Shown here: positions 2,418 through 46,524 of the stretch, piece after piece
How positions within the stretch are numbered: position 1 is the stretch's first letter
Layout: every line of letters begins with the position of its first letter
Origin: Enterobacteria phage mEp021
Sequence record: MH706966
Length of the DNA stretch: 54,655 bases
Reading direction: 5' to 3' (one strand)
Notes under the pieces: generated by a model
The model's input: the letters and a program-made list of their open reading frames with translations, nothing else
Told to the model about the DNA's origin: nothing
Databases searched by the model: none
Program-made: the position numbers and the translations under genes

Positions 2418-2849
2418 TTATTGCCCCCAGCGTTTTATAAATTCCTCGTTCAACTTAGTGTCACCAGACCATTGAACATTATGTTCAGCGCCGAACGAGT
2501 AGATCAGTTCGATTAGTTCGCTAAATTCTGCTTTACTCATCCGGCTGGTTGACGTACCCAGCACAACAAAACCTGATTTATCCAGGTTAGGGACAACGCC
2601 ATATTTCTTAAGTCCGGCAGTAAATACCGCCTTCCAGTCTTCCGGCGACAGCTTTTTTCCGTACCAATTAACCTGATCGCTAATGTCGGTTAACAGCGCC
2701 CATAAAAGGCTATTTTGACTAAGCGAGCGGGTTTTCTCCTGGATGGTAATTATCAGCGGGCTTTTGCTATCAGACTGGATCTCTCTTATCTGCCTGATAG
2801 CGTTTTCTTTTACGGCGTCGTTTACTATTTCAAATCTAATTTGCCTCAT
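2418..2849 (-). CDS. ninB: NinB-like recombination protein
   Basis: 143 aa; resemblance to the lambda NinB (Orf) family as recalled; sits in a nin-like context next to a methyltransferase. Confidence 0.65.
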   Translation of the reverse strand: MRQIRFEIVNDAVKENAIRQIREIQSDSKSPLIITIQEKTRSLSQNSLLWALLTDISDQVNWYGKKLSPEDWKAVFTAGLKKYGVVPNLDKSGFVVLGTSTSRMSKAEFSELIELIYSFGAEHNVQWSGDTKLNEEFIKRWGQ

Positions 2850-3573
2850 GGTTAGATAACGCCTCGTTTATTCTATTTGATGCAATTTCGAAATATTTTT
2901 CATCCTTTTCTATGCCGATAAAACGTCGGTTAGTATTAATGCAGGCAACGCCTGTAGTTCCGCTGCCCATAGTAAAATCGAGAACCGTTTCCCCTTCGTT
3001 AGTGTATGTCTTAATTAGGTATTCCATCAGTGCGACAGGCTTTTGTGTTGGGTGTACCTTGCCTTTCTGGTTTGCGTTACTTATCTCTATAATGCTTTTA
3101 GGGTGCTTATCCTTATAAGTCCTTAAATCACCATAATTAATTATGCGGTTTGCCTCCCCAGCAGAATATGTTTTACCCGTCCTTTCCTTTTGCGGAGTTT
3201 TTATTGGGTAATATTTGACAGCGCCTTTAGAAAAAACAACAACATCCTCATGCACCCTATAAGGTTGCCATTTGAGGACTTGCATGTTACCGCCTTTCTT
3301 CTTGTCCCATACCCAGCAATATTTAAACATGCTTATGTTGCTTGCAATTAGTGTTGTAGTGAACGGCTGACTTGCAGTCATCACAATGGCGCAATTCGGC
3401 TTAACTATGCGCTTTAATTGCTCCCACATTGGATTAAGAGGAATGACGGAATCCCATTTGCAGGCCGTTGTGCCGTAAGGCGGATCAGCCATTACCATAT
3501 CAACGCTACCGCCTGGGATAGAGTTCATGACCTCCAGACAATCACCCAACAATAATGTAACATCTTTATTCAT
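2836..3573 (-). CDS. DNA methyltransferase, N6-adenine or N4-cytosine type
   Basis: 245 aa; DPPY catalytic motif (MADPPYGT) near the N-terminus and AdoMet motif FTMGSGTTGVA near the C-terminus (motif IV before motif I). Confidence 0.75.
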   Translation of the reverse strand: MNKDVTLLLGDCLEVMNSIPGGSVDMVMADPPYGTTACKWDSVIPLNPMWEQLKRIVKPNCAIVMTASQPFTTTLIASNISMFKYCWVWDKKKGGNMQVLKWQPYRVHEDVVVFSKGAVKYYPIKTPQKERTGKTYSAGEANRIINYGDLRTYKDKHPKSIIEISNANQKGKVHPTQKPVALMEYLIKTYTNEGETVLDFTMGSGTTGVACINTNRRFIGIEKDEKYFEIASNRINEALSNHEAN

Positions 3574-37725: not shown

Positions 37726-40071
37726 ATGTCCACCAGTTTAGGTACAATTTATTACGAAGTTGATGCAAAAACTGGTCAACTTCTAGTCGCTCAGAGACAG
37801 GCGGATCAGGCTTTTGACAGTATCGAGCGTGGCGCAAAACGCGCTGACCGCCAGGTTAACACGCTTAAAACTTCAATCAAAGCACTATCCAGGGTTATAC
37901 ATCTGCTACTTGCTGCGGAGGCTGTGCGCCAGTTTATTGACATGGCGGAGCAAGCAAAAATGCTTCGTGTCAAAATTAAAATGCTCACAGGTGACGCAGA
38001 GGCCGCAGGACGTGTTTTTGACGGCCTGAAAAAAATATCAAAGGAAACCGGGCAAAGCCTTAAAGACACTGGCGAATTGTGGCAAGGCCTGGCTATTTCA
38101 CTAAAGAATACTTCCGCTACGGAAGGCCAATTGCTCAACCTGGTTGGCACTATTCAGAAGATGGGGGCGTTAGGAGGCGCGTCAGCGGAACAGATGTCTA
38201 ATTCTATGCGCCAGTTCCGCCAGTCTATAGACGGCGGCGTGCTGCGTGCTGAAGAGTTTAACAGCCTGTTAGAGAACACGCCGACCATCGTACAGACAAT
38301 GGCCCGCCATATGGGGTTGTCAATGGGCCAGTTCCGCGCCGAAATGCTGGACGGCAAGATCACGGCTGAAAGGATGGTTAACGCGATTCAGGCAGCTACA
38401 CAGGAAACAAACGAGAAGTTTGCACAGTTGCCGCGCACGTCCGGCAAGGCTATCAATGAGCTTAAAGTTGAGGTGATGGGGCTTGTCGAACAACTTGACG
38501 ATCTTTTCGGCATATCAGATGGCGTTGTATCAGCTATCGACTTAATAACTGGCGGCGTTGAGGGATTAGGTAAAGGCGCTAAATTCGCCGCAACCTGTTT
38601 TAATACACTCAAAACGGCTGGCAGTGAGTTCATAGACATGTTTGACGACGTGGCTGTTAAGGCTGGCGAGGTGGCGGAAGAAATCATTAGAATGGTAACG
38701 CCAATCAAGGCGCTAATGGATGGCTACAAATGGATGAAGGAGATTGTAGGAAAGCAAACAGAAGAATATAACACCAATTATGAGAAGAAATACGGTAAAA
38801 GACTTGGTAAGGGAATGCAATTTTGGGATGATTGGCAGGCCGTACTTAACCAAACAAAAGAAAACAAGGGAACCGACACCGCTGACGACGGCAAGATCAC
38901 CGGATTCGAGCCACCAGTAGATAAGCCAGGAAAACCGAAAAAAGGAAAAAAAGACAAGAAATCTGAAGCTGATCGGCTTGGTGATGAAGGTATAAAAGTG
39001 TCCGACCAGTACAACAAGGACGCCGCCGCTATGCGCAAAGCATTAGAGAACGGCAAGGCCATTGATGCTGCATTCGCCCAGGGCAAAATCACCCTCCTTG
39101 AGTACAAGGCCGCGCAAAAGGGGATAGGCAAGGAACTGAAGGACGAATTGGCACAAATCCCGGTGGAAGAATTGCAAGATAAATGGGCGCACATAGTAAG
39201 CCCAATGGATCAGCTTAAGGGCGAAATTGACCCAATCAAACAGGCGCAGAATGAGTGGGCTGTCAGAAAACAAATGCTATTAGACCTGGGAGCTACAGAA
39301 GCGCAACAGAGACAGGCGCAGTTAGAATATGAGCAACAGATCAGGGATCTGAAGTGGGAGCAATGGCAGGCGCAAAGCGACACAAACAGCCTGATTGGTG
39401 CTTGTGTTAGCGGCCTCAAGGGTGGCATGGGTAATGCGCTTACTGGCCTGTTAAACGGTACTCAATCATTAAGCGAGGTTTTTGCCAACCTGGGAAGCAG
39501 CATACTTAACACCGTAGGCAATAAACTTTCGGAAATAGCCGCTAACTGGATAGCAGATCAATTGATGATGGAAACGCAAAGCAAGGCTACACAGGCAAGT
39601 ACAGCGGCTGGCGCTGTGGCAGCGCAGGGCGAGATTGCTGCGGCAGCGGCCCCGGCAGCGGCTGCGACGGCGGCATCAACTGGCGGTAGCTGGGCGGCGG
39701 CTGGTGCTGCGGCGCTTTCTGCTATCATGTCGCTGGCAACGTCAATTTTTGGCGGCGGTCGTTATAATGGTGGTTCTGTGAATGGTGGCAGTCTGTATCG
39801 CGTAGGGGAACACGGAATACCGGAGCTATTCCAGACGAGCAACGGGCGTCAGTATATGATTCCTGGGGAAAATGGCAGGGTTATTCCTGGCCGCGATCTT
39901 TTCAGTGGTGGCAGCATCAGTATGCCTGTTAACATTACCGTTCAGACCACAAACGGGTTTAGCGAAGAGGACAGTCGCAGATTGCAAGACGCCATGAAAC
40001 GCGTTGCAATGGGAGTAATTAAAGAGCAAAGTTCAAGGCCCGGAGGTCTTATCCAACCACGAAGAAAATAA
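37726..40071 (+). CDS. Tail tape measure protein
   Basis: 781 aa; helical N-terminal two-thirds, glycine/alanine-rich segment, position in the tail module; SD gaggt. Confidence 0.85.
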   Translation: MSTSLGTIYYEVDAKTGQLLVAQRQADQAFDSIERGAKRADRQVNTLKTSIKALSRVIHLLLAAEAVRQFIDMAEQAKMLRVKIKMLTGDAEAAGRVFDGLKKISKETGQSLKDTGELWQGLAISLKNTSATEGQLLNLVGTIQKMGALGGASAEQMSNSMRQFRQSIDGGVLRAEEFNSLLENTPTIVQTMARHMGLSMGQFRAEMLDGKITAERMVNAIQAATQETNEKFAQLPRTSGKAINELKVEVMGLVEQLDDLFGISDGVVSAIDLITGGVEGLGKGAKFAATCFNTLKTAGSEFIDMFDDVAVKAGEVAEEIIRMVTPIKALMDGYKWMKEIVGKQTEEYNTNYEKKYGKRLGKGMQFWDDWQAVLNQTKENKGTDTADDGKITGFEPPVDKPGKPKKGKKDKKSEADRLGDEGIKVSDQYNKDAAAMRKALENGKAIDAAFAQGKITLLEYKAAQKGIGKELKDELAQIPVEELQDKWAHIVSPMDQLKGEIDPIKQAQNEWAVRKQMLLDLGATEAQQRQAQLEYEQQIRDLKWEQWQAQSDTNSLIGACVSGLKGGMGNALTGLLNGTQSLSEVFANLGSSILNTVGNKLSEIAANWIADQLMMETQSKATQASTAAGAVAAQGEIAAAAAPAAAATAASTGGSWAAAGAAALSAIMSLATSIFGGGRYNGGSVNGGSLYRVGEHGIPELFQTSNGRQYMIPGENGRVIPGRDLFSGGSISMPVNITVQTTNGFSEEDSRRLQDAMKRVAMGVIKEQSSRPGGLIQPRRK

Positions 40072-40126
40072 TTTATTGATTTAATCTTACGCCCGCAAGA
40101 TAATGACGTATCCTTGCGGGCTTTGC

Positions 40127-41461
40127 TTACGCGGCTTTTATAATTTCTTTATACTTATCTTCCACCATGTTAAAAACCTCTGGTCTGTAGTAGAAAAATT
40201 CGCAACTACCATCAAATTTTACTGGGAAGTTAATTTTGTAATTATTAAGGGTTTTGTGTATCGCGCCTTCTAGTTCATAGATATTTTGTGTCGGACCTTC
40301 TAATGTTTTTACGATATGCAAATCAGGAATCGTTACACCCGCTTTATGTGCGCTACTTAGTATTCTATTTCTTCGTTCGTTTTCCTTAACACTTACCCCT
40401 ACTTTCATTAGCGTTGGTACTTCCAGATCGTCAACCATGATATAAAGTTTGCCGCGTTCGTAGGATAAAAAACCCTTTTTAGCACATTTAGAACAGCCGC
40501 TACCTTCCTTAAGTTTTTGCGGCGTGGTTCGCCACTTATAACCACACACTTTACATAAACACGATACTTTGTTTTTATTCCCTGTTATTTTACCTACCAC
40601 TTTGATATTAGGGTTGATGTTGGCAATGGCTTTTACTTGCTCATCATGTGATATTCTTCGTGCTTGCGATCCTTTTCGTTTCGCACACTTCGGGCAACCA
40701 GTACCTTTTTTAAGGCTGGCTGGAGTAGTTAACCACTCATGACTGCAAGACTTACAGCGGCATAACGTTCTCGTAGTATTGTTAATAATTTTTTCTAATA
40801 CCTCAACGCTAGGACTGGTTTTCGCAATAACTGCAATTTGTTCTTCATGTGATAGTTTGGTGTGTCCGCTACATTTCGGGCAGCCAGTACCATGCTTGAT
40901 GTTGTTGGGAGTTGCTGGCCATTCATGATTGCAAATCTTACATTTGCATAATACTTTTTTTAAACTCGCAGATTAAAAGGGGTTTTATTCAATATTGCTG
41001 TTAACCTTCGCAATAGCTGCAACTTGTTCTTCATGCGTTAATCTTCTATCTGCGCATTTTGGGCAACCTTGCCCGATTTTAAGTGTTTCAGGTCTAGCCA
41101 ACCATTCATGATCACAAACTTTGCAATGGCATAATACCTTTGTTTTATTATTAATAATTACCCCTAACACCTTAATATCAGGATTAACTTTAGCAATAAT
41201 TGCAACCTGTTCTTCGTGTGGTAATGCCCGTTTTTGTGCTCTTTTTAACGCCGCACATTTAGGGCAACCAACACCGCGCTTAAGATCAGCAGGTCTACCA
41301 AACCATTCGTGATTACAAGTTTTGCAGCAGCATGATACTTTTTCCATATTCCCGGTAATTACCCCTATCACCTCGATATTGGGGTTAACTTTTGCAATAG
41401 CGGCAACTTGTTCTTCGTGTGTTAATTTTTTTGTCATAATACCGCTCCTACAATCTTCCAT
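40127..41461 (-). pseudogene. Disrupted paralog of the Zn-ribbon/GIY-YIG-like gene at 7737-9224
   Basis: A single reading frame of about 445 codons carries about five Zn-ribbon modules and an intact C-terminal GIY-YIG-like domain but is interrupted by two in-frame TAA stops (+ strand 40985-40987 and 40973-40975). Confidence 0.55.
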
Positions 41462-41547
41462 TCCGTCCTACATAACTCCTGCCGAACATTACCAACCAGA
41501 TGCTCCAGATCTCCCGCCATGTGTATTTCTCATTCTTCATACCCGCC

Positions 41548-41802
41548 TCACTTATGAGCGCCTTTTACGCCACATAACTTGTTATAAAAATGGTGCTCAA
41601 CGATTAACCAAACCCTCAGATCTTCACTGAACAGCCGCCAATCAGGATTAATGTCAAACTTCCAGCCATAACCATCGCGTAACTTTTTGGGGTTGGCCTC
41701 TTTCTTCAGGAAAGCATTTAATAAGGCTTTTCCCTTTTTGATGATCCGGTCCTGTGCGTTTTTCTGTGCTTTCAGGTTTTTACCAATCGCCACCAATTTC
41801 AT
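41548..41802 (-). CDS. Small protein (84 aa), possibly RelE/YafQ-like toxin fold
   Basis: Lysine-rich N-terminal helices then GYGWKFDINPDWRLFSEDLRVWLIVEHHFYNKL, loosely resembling the YafQ PDW-L-Y pattern from memory; SD gcggggtgg. Confidence 0.3.
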   Translation of the reverse strand: MKLVAIGKNLKAQKNAQDRIIKKGKALLNAFLKKEANPKKLRDGYGWKFDINPDWRLFSEDLRVWLIVEHHFYNKLCGVKGAHK

Positions 41803-41820
41803 AATCCACCCCGCAATCAA

Positions 41821-41976
41821 TTAGTTGACCACTTTCAGGAAGAAATCACAGTATTCATCTTCTTTTGCATTCATCATGAACTGACCGTATTTGAATGCGT
41901 CATCAAAGCCTTTTACAATCGCCACTTCCACCTGTTCGAATGCGTTGTTCAGCATTACCACTACATAGCGTTTCAT
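41821..41976 (-). CDS. Small protein (51 aa), upstream partner of the 84-aa gene
   Basis: MKRYVVVMLNNAFEQVEVAIVKGFDDAFKYGQFMMNAKEDEYCDFFLKVVN; strong SD aaaggagggg 4 nt upstream of the ATG. Confidence 0.4.
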   Translation of the reverse strand: MKRYVVVMLNNAFEQVEVAIVKGFDDAFKYGQFMMNAKEDEYCDFFLKVVN

Positions 41977-42146
41977 GATGCCCCTCCTTTGTTGGTACTG
42001 CTTTCTCTTCTTGCCTCCTATATACATCTTGTTACGTCATGTGTGAAGCCATTTTGTAAACTGGGTATAATTCTTGTGACGAAGTTCTCATTTTTCGCGT
42101 AGAAGCGCGTAAAGATGTATGCAATATGTAACTTATAGGGGGAATC

Positions 42147-42500
42147 ATGCCTGAAGTTTTCAGATGGACGCCGCAAAGAAGCTACAGCGTGACCAGGGAA
42201 CCAAATGTGTCGGTCGTTAAACTTGGTGATGGTTATGAACAGCGCCAGGCTAAAGGGATTAACACGTTGCTTGATAGCTACACCCTGGTTTTTAAAGGCA
42301 GTAGCGCAGGATGCGGTGATAGTGGGAACGTGGCGATCCAGGCAGAAGCATTCTTGAGGGCGCGCGGCGCTGTCGAGGCTTTTTACTGGTCGCCGTCTAT
42401 GGATGGTGTGCAAAGGCTTTTTGTTTGCCGTAGCTGGAGTATGACAAAGGACGGGCCTGTATACACGCTAAACGCAACATTTGAGCAAGTTGTCAGTTAG
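42147..42500 (+). CDS. M: Minor tail protein M
   Basis: 117 aa; size and position as lambda gpM, immediately before gpL-like; SD taggggga. Confidence 0.65.
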   Translation: MPEVFRWTPQRSYSVTREPNVSVVKLGDGYEQRQAKGINTLLDSYTLVFKGSSAGCGDSGNVAIQAEAFLRARGAVEAFYWSPSMDGVQRLFVCRSWSMTKDGPVYTLNATFEQVVS

Positions 42501-42697
42501 TGGGGGTTAATATGTACGGGACTTGTGTAGTGGACAAAACTGACGCTTTTACATTGTTTGACGACTACGAGATCAACGACCTTACTGTAAAGGCTGACAA
42601 TGGCGATACATGGTATCTTCATGATGTTGGTGATGGTTATGTGGGATGCAGATCCAGAGAAGGCAAGGAGGTTTTATTTTTGGTTGATGGCGTATAA
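42500..42697 (+). CDS. Hypothetical protein (65 aa)
   Basis: ORF overlapping the gpM stop. Confidence 0.35.
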   Translation: MGVNMYGTCVVDKTDAFTLFDDYEINDLTVKADNGDTWYLHDVGDGYVGCRSREGKEVLFLVDGV

Positions 42698-42876
42698 TAA
42701 CAACCCCGCTTCGCGCGGGGTTTTCTTGTCAGTAGTTAATGTACATCAAACTCATTGGGTGAGCGTGCGCCATATTATTGGCTATCGCCGCCCAGTCCCA
42801 ATCGGCAGCATGAACGCCAAATACTATCAGTCCCATTATTATTAGCGCCAAAACTTCTATTTTCATAATCTGTCAC

Positions 42877-43191
42877 CTATAAGTTATCACGCAGGTAATT
42901 AACGCCCTTATCAGTGACGAATGAATGGTTTACCTGGTTTTCATCCGTCATGATGATGAATAACTTTTCCTGTAGGTATTTCGCTTTCGGGTACAGTGTT
43001 AAACAGACCTGGTACAGTATCCCGCGCTCAATCAGCAAATCAATAAATTCGTGCTCATGATAACCGATAAGGCGGGCGGCCTGTTTCAACGTGTACACAT
43101 AGTCACCGTGATTACGCCGTGCCATGATTTTATTCTCACATATCAAAAAATAGCATGTCAGGTATAAAAGTATCGCCGCAAGAATTTCCAT
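42877..43191 (-). CDS. Hypothetical protein, possible HTH DNA-binding protein (start ambiguous)
   Basis: YTLKQAARLIGYHEHEFIDLLIERGIL HTH-like segment; alternative start at 43125. Confidence 0.4.
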   Translation of the reverse strand: MEILAAILLYLTCYFLICENKIMARRNHGDYVYTLKQAARLIGYHEHEFIDLLIERGILYQVCLTLYPKAKYLQEKLFIIMTDENQVNHSFVTDKGVNYLRDNL

Positions 43192-43369
43192 ATCCTTTTA
43201 CCGTACTACCATCAATATCAATCACTGTGAGCGGCACAAAATTTAAACAGTCATCGACAGTGAAACGGCTGCCAGAAGGTGTAATGAATAATGGGTATCT
43301 ATTTTTTATATTAAAATCATCATTTTTGTTAGATGTAACAACGAGTTTGATAACACCTATCATCTTCAT
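43136..43369 (-). CDS. Hypothetical protein (77 aa)
   Basis: ORF in the opposite-strand island. Confidence 0.35.
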   Translation of the reverse strand: MKMIGVIKLVVTSNKNDDFNIKNRYPLFITPSGSRFTVDDCLNFVPLTVIDIDGSTVKGYGNSCGDTFIPDMLFFDM

Positions 43370-43384
43370 ATATCGGCCTACACT

Positions 43385-43738
43385 TTATTTGCCATTAAAA
43401 CAGCCCAGGTTATCTATGCAGAAGTCTTTTGCCGCTTTTTCGTATTCGCGTTTTGCTTCCGGATCGTCAGCTGGAAAACCTTTTGCGTGTATTTCTCCAG
43501 GGCAAGATTGATCCATAGAATCAGCAAATTCAACATTGACGTTAAAGTTAATATCTTTCGGGTTCATCTCTTCCACCTTATCCGGTACTTGGACCGGAGT
43601 AATATCAAAATCACGATAGTTAAACCCACAGCGAAGTAATTCACGACCTTCATCACGCGCCGCAGCATATGTGTCAAATAGGCCCATGCGTTCCCATCCG
43701 CATTTATTAGTAAACACGTCTAAACTGTATTTTTGCAT
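43385..43738 (-). CDS. Hypothetical protein (117 aa)
   Basis: ORF in the opposite-strand island. Confidence 0.45.
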   Translation of the reverse strand: MQKYSLDVFTNKCGWERMGLFDTYAAARDEGRELLRCGFNYRDFDITPVQVPDKVEEMNPKDINFNVNVEFADSMDQSCPGEIHAKGFPADDPEAKREYEKAAKDFCIDNLGCFNGK

Positions 43739-43750
43739 TTTGTTAACCTC

Positions 43751-43981
43751 TCATTTGACGGGTTCGATCTCGTACCCCAAAACGCGTTCGTCTTCAGCAA
43801 GTAAAAGCGCGTCAACCAGCGCATCGCCTTCATCTTTATACAGGGCCACAAGCATTTCCCTGCCATCAGCCAGGAACACCGTCAACCTCCACACCTTATC
43901 ATCCATCGCACACCTCCGCGCCATTTTGTTAACCCTGCTTCCTTTTGAGTACAATATACATATTGTAAAAAGCGCTATCAA
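43751..43981 (-). CDS. Hypothetical protein (57-76 aa)
   Basis: First gene of the opposite-strand island; acidic. Confidence 0.35.
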   Translation of the reverse strand: MIALFTICILYSKGSRVNKMARRCAMDDKVWRLTVFLADGREMLVALYKDEGDALVDALLLAEDERVLGYEIEPVK

Positions 43982-44033
43982 CCGTTTTGGTATGATTTAG
44001 CGTGACGTAGATCACAAATTGCAAGGTGATAAA

Positions 44034-44738
44034 ATGCGCAGCATACCTACAGAAATGATTATTGATTCCGTGGATGCCGGAGTCGGCGCGGTAATTGACT
44101 TGTTTGAATTAGACCTCACGCCCCTGGGTGGCGAGGTTATCCGCTTCCATTCCGGCGCGAATGGCTATTACGGCCCGGTTATCTGGAAGGGGGTGGCCTA
44201 CAACAGCTACCCAATCGAGGCGACTGGCTTCGAAATGAAAAACGAAGGCGTTTACTCACGCCCACAAATGGTAGTAGCCAACATCGGCGGGCTAATCACC
44301 GGGATGAATAACGATTTTAACGACCTGCGAGGAATGAAGGTTACGCGCCGCCAGGTGGAGGTAAAATACCTGGACGCCGTTAATTTCCCCAACGGCAACC
44401 CGGATGCAGATCCATCTATTGAGGCTGTGTCTTTTTACGTCGTTGAAGCGATGAGTGAAGAAACAGCCGACCAGGTGCAATATGAACTGTCAACGCCAAT
44501 TGATGCTGATAAGGCGGTTATCCCTGGGCGCACAATTCTCGCTGACGTTTGCCAGTGGCAATATCGCGGCGACGGTTGCGGATACAGTGGCGGCCCTGTA
44601 GCTACAGATAAAGACGAATCGACCAGCGATCCAAAACTGGATAGATGCAGCCACCGCCTGAGCGGTTGCCGTTTGCGTTTTCCGCGCCCCAACCCGTTAC
44701 CAATTTCCTGTTTCCCGGGATCAAGCAAGGTGGGTTGA
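44034..44738 (+). CDS. L: Minor tail protein L
   Basis: Closely parallels lambda gpL as recalled, including the C-terminal Cys cluster CQWQYRGDGCGYSG...CSHRLSGC; SD aaggtg. Confidence 0.85.
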   Translation: MRSIPTEMIIDSVDAGVGAVIDLFELDLTPLGGEVIRFHSGANGYYGPVIWKGVAYNSYPIEATGFEMKNEGVYSRPQMVVANIGGLITGMNNDFNDLRGMKVTRRQVEVKYLDAVNFPNGNPDADPSIEAVSFYVVEAMSEETADQVQYELSTPIDADKAVIPGRTILADVCQWQYRGDGCGYSGGPVATDKDESTSDPKLDRCSHRLSGCRLRFPRPNPLPISCFPGSSKVG

Positions 44739-45957: not shown

Positions 45958-46524
45958 GTGAACTGGTCTGAATTGTTTGTTTATGATGAAGATTCTCCTT
46001 CATGTTTAAGGTGGAAAGTCACCGCTAACAGCAGAACGGCGAGGACTGGCGATGCGGCAGGAAAAATAGTAGCGGCAAAAAGCGGCAATAAGTACTGGAA
46101 AATCACATGGAAGGGCCGTCGCTATTATGCTCACCGGATTGTTTACGAATTATGCAGTGGCAGAAAATTAAAACGCAGTGAGATCATCGATCACATTGAT
46201 GGTAATGGGCTTAATAATAAATTCAATAACATACGCGTAACAGATAAAAAAGGTAACGCCAGAAATATGACCATAGGTCGCGCGACAAGGGAGAGCGGAT
46301 TGCCATTTGGGATATGTTGGCACGCAGAAGGGAGATCTATTAGAGCACGTATCACCGCTGATAACGACAAAAGAGTTAGTAAATCATTTAGCGTTATAGC
46401 GTGCGGTGGACTTGAAATGGCTATTAATGCCGCCGTCGCGTGGCGGTCATTCATGATTGAAGAGCTAAATAAAGCTGGCGCAGGATACACGAAATTACAC
46501 GAAACAGGGGGTTTATATGTCTAG
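45958..46524 (+). CDS. HNH homing endonuclease with AP2-like domain, inserted between I and J
   Basis: 188 aa; SEIIDHIDGNGLNNKFNNIRVTDKKGNARN HNH motif; GTG start with SD aggggg; paralog of 6080-6586. Confidence 0.7.
   Translation: MNWSELFVYDEDSPSCLRWKVTANSRTARTGDAAGKIVAAKSGNKYWKITWKGRRYYAHRIVYELCSGRKLKRSEIIDHIDGNGLNNKFNNIRVTDKKGNARNMTIGRATRESGLPFGICWHAEGRSIRARITADNDKRVSKSFSVIACGGLEMAINAAVAWRSFMIEELNKAGAGYTKLHETGGLYV

Follow-up and report, generated by a model that had tools for sequence, protein, structure and literature searches.

The minus strand of Enterobacteria phage mEp021 encodes, between the genes for the tape measure protein and the minor tail protein gpM, an 84-aa product (T84; mEp021_67) that belongs to the RelE/ParE toxin-fold superfamily as a genuine, if divergent, member. 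The small gene that precedes it, A51, is dispensable for the maintenance of T84 and, because related phages have lost A51 and kept T84 intact, is probably not its obligatory antidote. T84 adds one member to an existing, uncharacterised Pfam family, and its neighbour A51 is a gene of no assigned function. The reading that we favour, with a confidence somewhat short of even, is that T84 is a RelE/YoeB-like effector independent of A51. The phage itself, a temperate siphovirus, belongs to the "mEpimmI" group and integrates in ydaM (PMC11893012); the window analysed here is the whole 54,655-nucleotide stretch of record MH706966, to which all mEp021 coordinates refer.

Gene layout of the leftward unit

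The raw minus-strand open reading frames (ORFs) at the locus run from 41821 to 42027 and from 41548 to 41820, and correspond to two head-to-tail genes, A51 (51 aa) followed by T84 (84 aa), both confirmed as real and separated by 18 nt as read from the sequence. The features of the locus and its flanks are as follows.

37726..40071, plus strand: tape measure protein, flank (PF20155 TMP_3, E 2e-51)
40091..40121, both strands: GC-rich hairpin GCCCGCAAGGAUA…UAUCUUGCGGGC, candidate convergent terminator, from RNA folds
40127..41461, minus strand: interrupted homing-endonuclease-like gene (Pfam DUF4379, CapR and T5orf172; PHROG endonuclease families)
41448..41540, minus strand: P30, 30-aa Trp-rich ORF, MKNEKYTWREIWSIWLVMFGRSYVGRNGRL, annotated in mEp013
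41548..41802 including the stop, minus strand: T84, 84 aa, ATG at 41802, RelE/ParE-superfamily toxin fold
41806..41814, minus strand: T84 Shine-Dalgarno-like sequence, GCGGGGTGG
41821..41976, minus strand: A51, 51 aa, acidic, ORF with ATG at 41976, conserved Shine-Dalgarno sequence and non-conserved upstream frame
41981..41990, minus strand: A51 Shine-Dalgarno sequence, AAAGGAGGGG, 6 bases 5' of the ATG at 41976
42019..42047, minus strand: candidate sigma-70 promoter, TTCACA-17 nt-TATATA, hexamers placed by eye
42147..42500, plus strand: gpM minor tail protein, flank (PF05939, E 6e-29)

A sequence-only reading of this DNA had described two head-to-tail minus-strand genes of 51 and 84 aa with Shine-Dalgarno sequences, lying between tape measure and gpM, and both points are borne out, the first by the ORFs together with AAAGGAGGGG and GCGGGGTGG and the second by the PF20155 and PF05939 matches of the flanks. 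Purifying selection acts on A51 (pN/pS 0.11) and on T84 (pN/pS 0.19), and homologues of both occur in about 50 phage or prophage loci, which shows that they are not chance ORFs. The start of A51 was placed at ATG 41976 because, in 43 related sequences, the frame of the upstream extension is not preserved while the Shine-Dalgarno sequence persists, as AAGGAGG or AAGGGGG in 43 unique upstream sequences. A 68-aa version of A51 beginning at the first ATG (42027) was rejected; its 17 extra codons are out of frame or often carry stops in the 43 relatives, and its ATG falls within the spacer of the candidate promoter.

The same reading had taken the cassette to consist of two genes, and here it has to be corrected, as the same strand goes on into the 30-aa ORF P30 and then into the interrupted zinc-finger/T5orf172 gene. 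P30 begins 7 nt past the T84 stop with a Shine-Dalgarno-like sequence of its own (GAGGCGGG), has no family match, and is a variable third gene, with full-length homologues (63-80% amino acid identity) in 30 of 51 related loci and absent or truncated in the rest. The endonuclease-like gene, which is variable downstream cargo of the strand that carries T84, encodes five treble-clef zinc-finger repeats and a C-terminal T5orf172 domain, and aligns collinearly, within one frame, with mEp013_88 (436 aa, 89% identity). It is broken by two in-frame stops (…NSNIE*NPF*SASL…), and ORFs of 158 and 157 aa are its pieces; it is either a pseudogene or the product of a SOLiD/Velvet assembly error. In rV5-like phages a related gene is annotated as a GIY-YIG nuclease. 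The hairpin at 40091..40121 occupies part of the 55 nt that separate the tape-measure gene from the leftward unit converging on it, and folds at -19.7 and -20.6 kcal/mol on the two strands (z -2.5 and -2.4); it has no clean T-run on either side and was not called by the terminator scan.

Other inserts were found in the tail region. Four small genes (42877-43981, minus strand) form another opposite-strand cassette, placed between gpM with the conserved 65-aa ORF that follows it (42500-42697) and gpL; the product of the first contains a KilAC/ANT antirepressor domain (PF03374, E 1e-6) and the other three are without a family match. An HNH_3 endonuclease gene (PF13392, E 1.6e-9; 45958-46524, plus strand) is inserted behind the gpI-like gene of the tail operon, and related phages carry other endonuclease genes beside T84, for example an HNH gene in mEp515. 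The HNH_3 insert and the endonuclease genes adjacent to T84 make the tail region look like a hotspot for homing-type genes.

Family and fold of T84

The Pfam family PF24732 (ParE_like) matches T84 over profile positions 2-67 of 67 with 47.2 bits (gathering threshold 24.4; E 2.2e-12), and is matched by all 22 of the aligned T84 homologues; T84 also matches phrog_1525. Since the ParE_like score lies above the gathering threshold, similarity to the toxin superfamily is present at the fold level, and the loose RelE/YafQ likeness of T84 that had been proposed from the sequence holds at that level, with YoeB and YafQ also being the top Foldseek matches. The AlphaFold2 model of T84, built with 22 homologues, has a pLDDT of 90.4 and a pTM of 0.79 and the order beta, beta, alpha (18-32), beta, beta, beta, alpha (70-77), which agrees with the small alpha/beta fold of the RelE/ParE superfamily, in which an antiparallel sheet of three to five strands packs on one or more N-terminal helices. 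The helical N-terminus that had been expected for T84 is partly recovered, in that the model contains one helix there (18-32), but a beta-hairpin comes before it.

The Foldseek scores of the best matches are weak (YoeB: prob 0.93, E 0.15, TM 0.49), and the best structural matches, YoeB, YafQ, RelE and HigB, have in common with T84 a beta-alpha-beta-beta-beta-alpha core. Like T84, these mRNA interferases are small and basic; they differ from it in that no significant sequence or profile match joins them and in that a short beta-hairpin of T84 takes the place of their first helix. Three residues of T84 (W55, R56 and N74) are invariant down to homologues of about 25% identity, and K23, L41, L57, S59, W65 and H70 are near-invariant. 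The catalytic set of RelE, YoeB and YafQ combines an Arg or Lys of the sheet with a C-terminal His or Tyr. For residue register, the T84 family was compared by hhalign with single YoeB, YafQ and RelE sequences (E 0.03-0.2). This placed T84 16-59 on YoeB 19-68 with R56 over R65 (E 0.2, non-significant and used for register only), and T84 45-61 on YafQ 58-74 with D54-W55 over D67-W68 (E 0.03, likewise non-significant and for register only). By these non-significant alignments R56, H70 and N74 of T84 stand in the register of YoeB R65/H83 and YafQ D67/H87, so that a middle-strand Arg and a His/aromatic motif past the last strand would be features that T84 has in common with YoeB and YafQ. Structure and motif register together suggest, in our reading, that T84 is nearer to the YoeB/YafQ/RelE mRNA-interferase branch than to ParE proper, and that it may have an RNase-type activity.

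Among the 22 T84 homologues no Pfam toxin family besides ParE_like was matched at E up to 10, classical ParE included, and a search of all PDB chains with the T84 sequence and the 22-member family profile returned nothing relevant and matched no ParE sequence. NCBIfam matched neither T84 nor A51, and neither was matched by the PADLOC defence-system models at E up to 1, for which reason an assignment of the cassette to a defence system was dropped. The Pfam name ParE_like, and the product name "ParE family toxin-like protein" that RefSeq gives to the E. coli prophage homologues (80-89% identity), would favour T84 being a true ParE-type toxin that poisons DNA gyrase; "ParE" in these names is a similarity label rather than a tested function. 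Against this, as matches to T84 the ParE structures rank under all of the RNase-type ones (5-8% identity, compared with 19-21% for YafQ and YoeB), the classical ParE family goes unmatched in the Pfam search just described, and the T84 model is without the N-terminal two-helix hairpin typical of ParE. We consider a gyrase poison highly improbable.

T84 might instead be a domesticated, non-toxic protein with a phage-specific binding or regulatory role, such as binding RNA or the ribosome without cleavage, A51 then being an unrelated accessory. Consistent with this are the weak structural scores, the predicted replacement of the two-helix hairpin by one long helix with an extra N-terminal beta-hairpin, and the Lys that T84 has at the position of the YoeB general base E46 in the non-significant hhalign register. 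T84 is also fixed in every member of its phage group, unlike sporadic defence morons, and is tolerated without A51. Conversely, the invariant or nearly invariant R56, H70 and N74 resemble an active site more than a scaffold, and truncated or frameshifted T84 copies, which are usual for costly genes, are present in some E. coli genomes. As the domesticated state also makes no positive in silico prediction, we rate it as improbable, though less so than a gyrase poison.

Is A51 the antitoxin of T84?

In IMG/VR, 46 loci of the phage type of mEp021 carry T84, and A51 lies directly upstream of it in 44 of them with a spacing of 18-24 nt; the 44 A51 loci, which were found independently, are all on those T84 contigs, and A51 never occurs alone. 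A51 and T84 are thus, as type II pairs are, adjacent co-directional small genes with a short gap that are found together. Such a classical module, in which A51, as a new antitoxin lacking a DNA-binding domain (compare PaaA2), would neutralise T84 by binding it and the pair would stabilise the prophage or abort superinfecting phages, is also suggested by the antitoxin-then-toxin order with its 18-nt gap and a Shine-Dalgarno sequence on each gene, by the purifying selection on both genes, by the toxin fold of T84 and by charge, A51 being acidic and T84 very basic from their sequences. On balance we find it rather unlikely, for the reasons that follow.

In a type II pair an intact toxin gene would not be expected to be kept without its antitoxin, but T84 is intact in two genomes in which A51 has been removed by an exact deletion, a metagenomic locus (L035) and a locus identical to the prophage of E. 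coli UMNK88 (L039). The deletion spans from the ATGAAAC at the start of A51 to the ATGAAAC at the start of T84, after which T84 sits behind the leader and Shine-Dalgarno sequence of A51. The sites, from alignment, are:

L035 and L039: A51 deletion around 2833-3001
L115 (E. coli UMNK88, NC_017641.1): 1659386-1659640

Identity between the L035 and L039 genomes is just 86-94%. Codon differences between their T84 genes number 7 synonymous and 2 non-synonymous; against the closest alleles linked to A51 the counts are 25-29 synonymous and 2-3 non-synonymous. T84 has therefore remained constrained in the absence of A51. No second match to the cassette, and no copy of A51 in trans, was found in UMNK88. 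An A51-less lineage could persist through a silent promoter, or through neutralisation of T84 by P30 or another factor. P30 is present in all three of the A51-less loci; because about 40% of loci lack or truncate it, P30 is not a general partner of T84, and it was rejected as a general antitoxin on this count.

Nor do the two genes change together. Conservation is 78-98% for A51 and 64-89% for T84, and one A51 allele occurs with three T84 allele types, from which we conclude that A51 and T84 do not covary. An A51-(G4S)6-T84 fusion modelled with AF2 on the paired alignment reached a pTM of 0.48, the alignment being shallow and the weights those of the monomer; the five models disagree (mean pLDDT 60 to 74) and give no confident docking. 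Within this fusion A51 is modelled as a beta-beta-alpha-beta domain that folds on its own (pLDDT of about 80), a compact domain that has just generic alpha/beta fold matches and resembles no antitoxin fold or antitoxin family. A51 has no match in Pfam, NCBIfam, PADLOC or PDB; its sole family match is phrog_29810, and its homologues are confined to the phage group of mEp021. A recognisable antitoxin or DNA-binding fold together with a palindromic operator, which would mark a type II antitoxin, is lacking, the region upstream of A51 containing no inverted repeat or palindromic operator and just a 16-nt direct repeat. A further point against the pair is that no partner family is conserved elsewhere in PF24732. 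The proposal of an antitoxin-toxin operon made in the sequence-only reading is accordingly unsupported as regards A51, given the intact T84 genes without it and the absence of antitoxin fold, operator and covariation.

YefM, DinJ, RelB and HigA, the antitoxins of the mRNA interferases, have DNA-binding domains, and A51 has none. The closest precedent for an antitoxin without one is PaaA2, which with ParE2 and PaaR2 forms a system of an E. coli O157:H7 prophage. Unlike A51, which is modelled as a folded domain, PaaA2 is a helical peptide that is mostly disordered; the PaaA2-ParE2 system has a third regulator (PaaR2) of which none is seen at the mEp021 locus, and T84 and ParE2 have about 5-6% sequence identity. 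A different precedent is RegB of phage T4, an endoribonuclease of the RelE/YoeB fold that acts in phage gene regulation without an antitoxin; by analogy, T84 may work in the manner of RegB.

Distribution and distant relatives

A scan with gpM showed that all 43 mEpimmI-type loci (gpM at least 84% identical) carry T84; in the next gpM group, at about 70% identity, neither T84 nor A51 occurs in any of the 37 loci. Both genes are present in all seven sequenced isolates. Of 5426 complete E. coli genomes, 28 have the cassette, in every case on the chromosome. The wider T84 family is phage-borne and occurs on just 2 of 72,556 plasmids, both of them Enterobacter replicons of 40-43 kb. By this distribution T84 therefore behaves as a lineage-fixed phage gene rather than a sporadic mobile toxin-antitoxin module. 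In size the two plasmid replicons are close to the genomes of Sortsne and Kc237, and they may be Sortsne-like phage-plasmids. The mEpimmI paper and its supplements (PMC11893012) make no mention of the A51 or T84 genes, of a toxin gene or of ParE.

The T84 subfamily is narrow, because just 4 clusters match T84 in an exhaustive phmmer search of 1.8 billion cluster representatives; a profile search added Sortsne-like homologues and others from E. coli early regions. These distant members of PF24732, a family on which we found no paper, are found in co-directional runs of early or accessory phage genes, next to unrelated neighbours. The homologue in Sortsne and Kc237 is preceded by a 123-125-aa protein and followed by a 96-98-aa protein, in E. 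coli prophage early regions its neighbours are DUF2857 and DUF7446, after DnaB, and in three further loci (L011, L058 and L070) there are still other neighbours. None of the neighbours of the distant members matched an antitoxin family. The Sortsne-like homologues (Sortsne, L002, and Kc237, L003) are 73 aa long, without the N-terminal beta-hairpin, and immediately precede the holin and lysin genes, overlapping both of their neighbours by 4 nt. L058 (IMGVR_UViG_3300045988_159287), a viral contig of 140.6 kb for which megablast against the phage collection found no relative, carries a full-length homologue (88 aa, 49% identity) amid many small early-type genes, its upstream neighbour being an unrelated 69-aa protein.

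A broader proposal would make PF24732 a phage-specific RelE/YoeB branch of stand-alone, antitoxin-free translation effectors comparable to RegB, with T84 as a core gene of the mEpimmI phages and A51 as either a new folded modulator without a DNA-binding domain or the founder of a new antitoxin family. We find this rather unlikely, to about the same degree as the type II pair.

The candidate promoter and the gpM/A51 intergenic region

The 170-nt intergenic region between gpM and A51 (41977-42146) is almost invariant in 43 unique sequences. Both hexamer blocks of the putative promoter at 42019..42047 are kept in these intergenic sequences, those of A51-less genomes included. Consensus scans called no minus-strand promoter or terminator in the region, that candidate included, and an Rfam scan of 39900-44100 found no RNA family. 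The intergenic region also contains the 16-nt direct repeat (42021-42036 and 42066-42081) and a TACGCG-N4-TACGCG motif.

Proposed role of the leftward unit

T84 is the constant gene of the small leftward unit, which lies antisense within the tail operon between tape measure and gpM. On the reading of T84 as an effector independent of A51, transcription from the candidate promoter would yield A51, T84 and the variable downstream cargo, and T84, presumably an inhibitor of growth or translation, would be made from this promoter of its own in the lysogen or early after infection. Late tail transcription opposing it across the same DNA would then silence the leftward unit, and control of T84 would be exerted mainly at the level of expression and not through an obligatory protein antitoxin. 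A51, which would be co-transcribed with T84, may modulate it without being a classical, indispensable type II antitoxin.

The A51 deletion in the UMNK88 prophage provides a natural genetic control for the question of whether A51 and T84 are a pair or T84 is a stand-alone effector. Should T84 prove inactive, what is described here is an ordinary annotation, that of a member of an existing Pfam family and its neighbouring gene. If T84 is active, all mEpimmI phages would bear a RelE/YoeB-like effector within their tail operon, and this effector could affect the physiology of the lysogen, the stability of the prophage or the exclusion of other phages.
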